Shown here: positions 20,163-20,312 of the stretch, piece by piece | Layout of the letters: every line of letters starts with the position of its first letter | Position numbering within the stretch: position 1 is the stretch's first letter | Source of the DNA: Myxococcota bacterium | GTDB taxonomy: Bacteria; Myxococcota_A; Bradymonadia; UBA4248; JAVFAO01 | DNA: 23,528 bases | Assembly (NCBI GenBank): GCA_034002465.1 | Contig: JAVFAO010000065.1 | Location: 1-23,528 of the forward strand | Reading direction: 5' to 3' | The notes under the pieces: model-generated | What the model was told of the DNA's origin: nothing | Seen by the model: the letters and a program-made list of their open reading frames with translations, nothing else | Database searches by the model: none | Made by a program: the position numbers and the translations under genes

Positions 20163-20312
20163 ACAAGTTGGGGGAACAGGCCAAGCGCCCAATGGACAAG
20201 AAGTTGGGGGAACAGGCCAAGCGCCCAATGGACAAGAAGTTGGGAGAGCAGGCCGAGCGCCCAATGGACAAGAAGTTGGGAGAACAGGCCGAGCGCCCAA
20301 TCGACAAGAAGT
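20163..20312 (+). repeat. Tandem array of four family A 36-bp units plus a partial unit, with no spacers.
   Basis: (aagttgggggaacaggccaagcgcccaatggacaag) repeated 4 times with 3-4 substitutions in units 3-4. All six reading frames are open through the array. Confidence 0.85.

Follow-up and report, generated by a model that had tools for sequence, protein, structure and literature searches.

What is an uninterrupted array of four 36-bp repeats doing in the gap between two genes of an uncultured bacterium: is it a small gene, a CRISPR relic, a cluster of binding sites, or a repeat that spreads by itself? The array lies in a stretch of DNA of 23,528 bp (the window), which is one complete contig, of 62% GC, from a MAG labelled Myxococcota bacterium. 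On its left is an MVP homologue (17171–20005, + strand, 944 aa; Pfam MVP_shoulder at 1e-18, with Vault_3 and Vault_4), and on its right a V4R/XylR_N gene. A first-pass annotation, made from the sequence, had placed the array in the gap between these genes, and the gap is real, measuring 659 nt from the MVP stop at 20005 to the in-frame V4R/XylR_N ATG at 20665. The array sits ∼350 nt upstream of this ATG.

The repeat itself is regular. TRF gave, for 20161–20312, a period of 36, 4.2 copies, 94% matches, indels 0 and a score of 255. Four head-to-tail units were delimited on the + strand (20168–20311) from TRF, a mismatch search and the sequence, and in the phasing TTGGGG...CAAGAAG these are U1 (20168–20203), U2 (20204–20239), U3 (20240–20275) and U4 (20276–20311). 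U1 and U2 are identical (TTGGGGGAACAGGCCAAGCGCCCAATGGACAAGAAG), whilst U3 has three differences from U1, as has U4, and the changes G6A and A16G are common to both. The string that had been given in the annotation for the shared substitutions, GAGAGCAGGCCGAGC, is exact for U3; U4, however, reads GAGAACAGGCCGAGC. A search for the unit allowing up to three mismatches recovered the four array copies, against an expectation of 0.00 from 100 shuffles. The '0.2 copy' in the TRF count is the left flank CAACAAG (20161–20167, + strand; TRF and sequence), which resembles the unit 3′ end, CAAGAAG, and might represent a microhomology, a target site or a target-site duplication.

A length of 36 nt is typical of CRISPR repeats, and the array could in principle be a degenerate or spacer-less CRISPR array. 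The units, however, abut without spacers, with a constant period of 36 and indels 0, as the first-pass annotation had argued, and no Cas domain was detected in the 15 longest ORFs of the window or in five array-crossing ORFs. The only Cas-named match was to Cas3-like_C_2, at 23 bits against a cut-off of 27, and falls within the helicase C-terminal domain of Mfd. Scans for Rfam families and for tRNAs gave no match, the unit forms no stable hairpin, and copies of it occur inside genes. We regard a CRISPR origin as hardly credible at all.

Whether the array is coding is a more involved question. The region 20129–20314 (185 nt) is free of stops in all six frames and is the joint longest such stretch in the window. 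Every frame has an ORF of 60 aa or longer running across the array, namely 20002–20454, 20048–20317 and 20154–20438 on the + strand and 19304–20377, 19918–20487 and 19938–20435 on the − strand, in agreement with the six open frames described earlier. When natural 36-mers from the window are tandemised, 26% of them are open in six frames, and the openness of the array is not statistically remarkable. Five of the six array-crossing ORFs were looked up (19304–20377 on the − strand excepted) and were absent from the collection that holds the NCBI and JGI gene calls of this MAG; no array-crossing ORF appeared among the matches of the two protein searches described below. Pfam gave nothing significant on these ORFs, the only match being to DUF5978 at 17.7 bits (cut-off 25).

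The best candidate for a gene is the ORF 20048–20317 (89 aa), which begins with ATG and carries, in frame b, four repeats of KLGEQAKRPMDK, the peptide repeat reported for one frame in the annotation. Frame-b codon usage is gene-like within the units (log-odds per codon 0.42, GC3 0.81; the range for eight correctly framed window genes is 0.19–0.51), and the peptide is found within many predicted proteins. Yet the log-odds per codon are −0.07 upstream of the units and −0.43 downstream, and the ORF is missing from the MAG gene calls and from the protein-search matches, with DUF5978 below threshold. Its ATG falls in the loop of a hairpin (20034–20058) that belongs to a separate repeat module (module C), no Shine–Dalgarno sequence was seen by eye, and at other loci module C and the units are read in frame a or antisense. 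A small gene containing the array is therefore very improbable on these points, and the array at 20161–20312 is probably not itself a gene. The uncalled ORFs, the codon score and the use of all six frames elsewhere uphold the earlier preference for a structural or mobile repeat over a gene. Since the unit also lies in frame inside many genes, evidence of translation would discriminate only for this locus, not for the family. The unit in frame b (20168–20311) has the codon usage of a gene, and frame b is also its commonest frame inside genes; the unit may have been derived from, or adapted to, coding sequence.

The array is not alone in the gap. Module C (19996–20100, + strand) is 95% identical over 105 nt to a contig from ENA (L007), starts at the MVP stop (..AAGAAG TGA GCG..) and holds the hairpin mentioned above, which has 12-bp arms. 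In L007 the module (reverse complement of 129–233) has different upstream sequence, starts ..AAC AAG TGA.. and is followed directly by two units; the start common to both contigs is ..AA[GC]AAG TGA GCG... Module C is also read as protein in P0127 and P0137. The last codons and stop of MVP (..AAG AAG AAG TGA) coincide with the start of the module, and module C may supply the MVP stop codon. Between module C and the array is a linker of ∼60 nt (20101–20160, + strand), missing at L007, in which the motif GCCATGGATGGC (window 20107–20120) is shared with a 72-nt module in the JGI contig L005. In the reverse complement of L005, two units start at 275 and 167, 108 nt apart (3 × 36), with the 72-nt module between them; this reads ..SQPGGGDSLRRQPEGCVP.. 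in one frame, recurs in P0139, P0146 and P0124, and may be a pair of diverged units. Close by on the downstream side of the array are two perfect GC-rich palindromes, GGCAGGCT-TTCC-AGCCTGCC (20335–20354) and GGGCGAGCGGCCGCTCGCCC (20405–20424), neither of which has a T-run. One terminator-like hairpin that does have a T-run was found, on the minus strand (20612–20592), against 0.7 expected by chance.

Two other repeats form part of the same mosaic landscape (positions without strand). Module D2 is a 90-nt repeat, found in the sequence at 8644–8733 and 22555–22644 with 79% identity, and, as protein sequence, follows three units in the annotated RecO, P0138 (residues 279–312). Family B, a second intergenic repeat found in the same way, occurs at 8582–8635, 13702–13731 and 16987–17040, has the form AAAGGGATTCCAA..GGGC..GCCC with a short GC hairpin, and begins behind a CAACAA-like junction. 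Of the three copies, two are just upstream of a 36-bp unit.

The annotation had assigned the unit to a repeat 'family A', and this family exists: the 36-bp unit occupies six loci in the contig, the array and five other sites. On the − strand, a full unit at 5809–5844 and an 18-nt partial unit at 5845–5862 were found by unit search and from the sequence, the full unit ending 28 nt upstream of the start of a PAS-domain gene (ATG 5780) in the gene-sense orientation. The other copies are on the + strand. Two are solitary units, both found by unit search and nhmmer: one, at 8749–8784, follows family B (8582–8635) and module D2 (8644–8733) in an intergenic mosaic downstream of mfd, and the other, at 17080–17115, ends 55 nt upstream of the MVP ATG at 17171 and has the same orientation as MVP. 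A unit at 11450–11485 (MAFFT and sequence) lies within mfd, antisense to the gene, which reads it in frame d as FLSIGRLACSPK. Finally, a probable degenerate unit (GGTGAAACAGGCCGAGCCCAATCAGCAACAAATTG) at ∼16955–16990 abuts a family-B repeat and gave a weak nhmmer match (E = 2.7).

Another possibility is cis regulation: each unit might serve as a promoter or bind a protein, and the array would then group several such sites to control the V4R/XylR_N gene or MVP. Within the unit is GGAAC-N16-CGAC (or GGAC), and GGAAC-N16-CGAC resembles the promoters of ECF sigma factors. Gene-sense solitary copies lie 28 nt (PAS), 55 nt (MVP) and 6 nt upstream of genes, the last being a unit in the JGI contig L006 (1975–1940, −) ahead of a ParB-like gene, and the distance of the array from the V4R start would also suit this role. 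Against it, the copies are nearly identical across all 36 nt, beyond any contact positions, and GGAAC is less conserved than the core of the unit (GGAAAAC at 8749, GGGACT at 17080). A sigma-70 promoter scan gave no match. Arrays are present in the coding sequence of at least 86 proteins, in six frames, and one unit is antisense in mfd. A regulatory function as the explanation of the array is, in our judgement, decidedly unlikely. DNA-uptake sequences and Chi- or KOPS-type motifs were also considered and rejected, as those motifs accumulate by substitution and not as tandem 36-nt blocks.

The extent of the family was surveyed with two protein searches. In the first, the six-frame translation of the tandem unit was compared with an index of 5.8 billion proteins; in the second, 1.84 billion representatives were searched exhaustively with HMMER, the query being P0124, a natural multi-frame match. 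Together these gave 129 arrays with 326 units in 86 proteins, a census that beyond the window is made at the protein level and draws almost wholly on one short-read MAG. There were 42 arrays of one unit, 29 of two, 26 of three, 20 of four, nine of five, one of seven and two of eight, although short-read assembly may have collapsed or misjoined the copies within an array. All six reading frames are used, with frame b in 64 arrays and frame a in 50, and frames c, d, e and f in 7, 3, 3 and 2, respectively. The two dominant frames encode the peptides LGEQAKRPMDKK (b) and VGGTGQAPNGQE (a); both are hydrophilic sense frames.

The source of all 25 proteins that were looked up (25/25) was a single Myxococcota MAG, the one to which the window belongs. 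The NCBI records among them have accessions of the form MDX97xxxxx, and RBU37_ locus tags occur only on 'hypothetical protein' records. Members of the protein clusters proved to be the same contigs deposited twice, in NCBI and JGI, and the cluster look-ups contained no orthologous array locus from another strain. At the DNA level, two JGI Ga0116164 contigs (L005 and L006) hold three more copies of the unit, and an independently assembled ENA MEGAHIT contig (L007; ERZ27264001) holds three. A contig scan for the unit core returned, among the matches listed, chance matches only. One of these, at 5937–5957 of contig L002 (from a Myxococcales MAG), matches a 21-nt core but lies in a sulfotransferase-like CDS (..LPAKRPMDNV..); it was judged chance or convergent and no family member.

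The clearest evidence that units insert into existing sequence comes from conserved genes. The Mfd protein of the window, P0001 (MDX9720645.1), has nearest homologues that are 54% identical, and at the site of the unit it carries the extra residues EFLSIGRLACSPKF, where 29/29 of its closest homologues show an 11-column gap in a MAFFT alignment. The DNA shows an insert of exactly 36 nt (12 residues), with a GAAC flank and an AAAC end, and the alignment to E. coli Mfd stops just before it, at chain residue 272. Given the gap in the homologues and the exact 36-nt insert, a whole unit has been inserted in frame into a conserved mfd gene.

Three further proteins have inserts that are internal when compared with solved structures, with homologous sequence on both sides. 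In the ManC-like Man-1-P guanylyltransferase P0123, a segment of ∼53 residues that is unaligned between residues 157 and 164 of 2x5s holds four units (48 aa). In the RlmK/L-like methyltransferase P0135, three units occupy a linker, by comparison with 3v8v. In the LipB protein P0148, residues 144–167 are 24 extra residues (two units) placed directly before the K-x-x-A-I-G of 2qhs. The motif in P0148 reads K-I-G-A-I-G, and the terminal ..DKK of the unit seems to supply its Lys, the counterpart of the conserved Lys in the alignment to solved LipB structures. Other cases are less secure as insertions. Era (P0137) at its N-terminus and ProC (P0139) at its C-terminus have probably been extended by the gene caller through stop-free intergenic arrays, and for RecO (P0138), which gave no PDB match, the choice is between a mosaic that interrupts the protein and a gene call that runs too far.

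The unit is, on these observations, a dispersed, insertion-competent repeat. Since it is 3n nucleotides long and free of stops in six frames, insertions in genes add blocks of 12 residues and leave the frame intact, and the in-gene arrays are predicted from their sequence to be translated into such blocks. We infer, with some force, that the unit survives in genes through its 3n length, its lack of stops and the hydrophilic character of its favoured frames; openness in six frames, unremarkable as it is for the array, probably explains why copies inside genes persist.

With most of the data coming from a single MAG, an assembly or sequencing artefact of short reads has to be weighed. Several arrays stand at contig ends (P0121, P0129, P0134 and P0140), long arrays exceed short-read resolution, and family members are nearly all from the one MAG. 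The family is present, however, in three independent assemblies (the MAG, JGI Ga0116164 and ENA ERZ27264001), its copies vary among themselves and each has flanks of its own, and the inserts keep the frame exactly between segments of conserved protein. Real repeats themselves break contigs. An artefact is highly improbable as the origin of the array.

How, then, do the units arrive and multiply? All arrays have one phase (TTGGGG...CAAGAAG) and consist of whole numbers of units. The DNA on their left resembles the end of the unit, with flanks CAACAAG, GAGAAC, CAACAAC and ATGAAC to be compared with unit ends CAAGAAG or CAAAAAC. The same tendency appears in the proteins: the residue preceding frame-b arrays is N or K in 44/54 cases (background 5.8%, p ∼1e-45), and that preceding frame-a arrays is E, Q or K in 31/43 (background 16.6%, p ∼1e-15), though part of this excess is due to degenerate units ahead of the array that escaped the fuzzy matcher (seen in flanks like DKK and RQE). 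This mimicry fits target-site duplication, microhomology or a partial unit alike. Arrays also carry their own locus-specific variants, such as KSGEQAKRPIDK ×7 in P0121 and QQKLGGTGQAPN ×6 in P0122, from which it follows that copy number grows locally. The identity of U1 with U2 and the variants common to U3 and U4 are of the same kind, and the local duplication that the first-pass annotation had proposed for this array stands.

The unit has none of the obvious structural handles of a mobile element. Folding of a single unit as DNA gave −4.2 and −2.5 kcal/mol, values not significantly different from those of shuffled sequences (z = −0.51 and +0.35). There are no inverted ends, as CTTCTTG, the 3′ end in reverse complement, is unlike the TTGGGGG of the 5′ end. 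The RNA of the whole array (+ strand) does fold with z = −5.4, from TTGGG/CCCAA pairing between units; with no significant fold in the single unit, and the array fold arising from unit–unit pairing, a structured-RNA reading was dropped.

Fixed phase and whole-number arrays bring to mind templated synthesis, in which a reverse transcriptase (telomerase- or DRT2-like) or a rolling-circle copier would read a small RNA or a circular template. Primed by a genomic 3′ end (...GAA or ...AAG), such an enzyme would extend it by complete 36-nt units with a realignment after every round, and the 5′ DNA resembling the 3′ end of the unit is what its alignment region would need. That several units are often present at new sites would follow as well. 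A precedent for the product is the DRT2 'neo' gene, a stop-free repetitive gene made by rolling-circle reverse transcription in which one template is recopied into concatemeric cDNA, and which shares with our arrays the tandem stop-free repeats and a unit length that is a multiple of three (PMC11100668, PMC12039810). The DRT2 products are extrachromosomal, arise upon phage infection and come from an adjacent RT and ncRNA locus, whereas the repeats here are chromosomal, dispersed and diverged, with no RT or Rfam family in the window. To our knowledge, chromosomal integration of DRT2 products has not been described. No RT domain was found in the 15 longest plus the five array-crossing ORFs of the window, Rfam was empty, and the locus-specific variants in neighbouring units indicate that much of the copy number is local and does not come from one template. 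We therefore consider templated, phase-locked synthesis unlikely, and it is quite unlikely, a little more so, that the unit is written into chromosomal 3′ ends by a templated polymerase, without cut-and-paste or copy-and-paste, which would make it a new class of mobile element that supplies genes across the host genome with stop-free peptide repeats of 12 residues.

The reading that we prefer, with a probability of about three in four, is that the array is a non-coding local expansion of a 36-bp interspersed repeat that is dispersed through one uncultured Myxococcota genome, seeds at AAG or AAC and then slips. In the seeding step, a whole unit would be copied from an existing copy into a site ending in AAG or AAC, an end that is microhomologous to the 3′ end of the unit itself. 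The copying might proceed by copy-choice (template switching) during replication or repair, or through a trans-acting enzyme. After this, slipped-strand mispairing or unequal recombination would lengthen and shorten the arrays locally, which would explain both the identity of U1 and U2 and the variants common to U3 and U4. The array at 20161–20312 most likely has no dedicated function and simply lies amid repeat modules and hairpins between MVP and V4R/XylR_N. Two observations sit less easily with this account. Undirected template switching would not obviously keep the phase constant at ∼100 loci, and an enzyme or template whose ends are defined would account for this constancy no less well; and the gene-like codon usage of the unit in frame b is not required of a neutral selfish element.

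Literature searches yielded no published description of such a 36-bp repeat family, only analogues. Among these, MIRUs are reportedly dispersed tandem arrays of variable copy number, without spacers, that grow by slippage. As in MIRU-VNTR loci, one unit family forms head-to-tail arrays at many places (the window, the 129 protein arrays and the two units in L007); unlike MIRUs, which are 40–100 bp and essentially intergenic within operons, our unit is 36 bp and often within CDS, in several frames. RPEs are described, in passages of PMC10969869 that cite Ogata et al. 2000, 2002, as inserted in frame in many unrelated conserved genes as well as between genes, adding a peptide and leaving the gene intact. 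The in-frame insertions in unrelated conserved ORFs (Mfd, P0123, P0148 and P0135) are of this kind. RPEs, however, are palindromes of ∼100–150 bp from Rickettsia, usually with one copy at a site, whereas the unit is 36 bp, has no significant hairpin, forms arrays of up to eight and occurs in Myxococcota. RPEs and MIRUs are the closest analogues, and the 36-bp family belongs to neither.

More distant comparisons lead to the same kind of partial match. Like the REP, BIME and REPIN elements of proteobacteria, on which PMC3116915 and PMC3184786 give background, the unit is ∼35–40 bp, highly repeated and part of mosaics, here with modules B, C and D2 and the 72-nt module. Unlike REPs, which are imperfect palindromes, extragenic and mobilised by RAYTs, it is non-palindromic and often intragenic, and no RAYT (Y1) transposase was present among the scanned ORFs of the window (the 15 longest and five array-crossing). 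It differs from a MITE in having no terminal inverted repeats. The SDRs of cyanobacteria and, in fungal mitochondria, the GC clusters (as in yeast var1) and double-hairpin elements are said to be ∼20–50 bp long, apparently mobile and non-coding, and sometimes located inside genes. All of these form hairpins, in contrast to the unit with its phase-locked tandem arrays, its 3n length and its freedom from stops. SDRs are mentioned in PMC3116915 and PMC2884548. Nor is the array like a gene for a tandem-repeat protein, as six frames are used across the family and the five array-crossing ORFs that were looked up have neither a gene call nor a significant Pfam match.

The practical consequence is that stop-free arrays mislead gene callers, giving N- and C-terminal extensions and 'hypothetical proteins' (Era P0137, ProC P0139 and P0122). 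If the preferred reading is true, one genome would hold some hundred or more (∼100+) in-frame arrays of a single 12-residue-encoding unit in housekeeping and signalling proteins, one of them adjoining the catalytic-lysine motif of LipB, and would thus be a natural experiment on how far proteins tolerate insertions in their loops. The combination of a 3n length with freedom from stops in all frames would then look like an adaptation of the element, and the puzzle that this organism poses would be how a 36-bp sequence with neither hairpins nor inverted ends spreads in a fixed phase.
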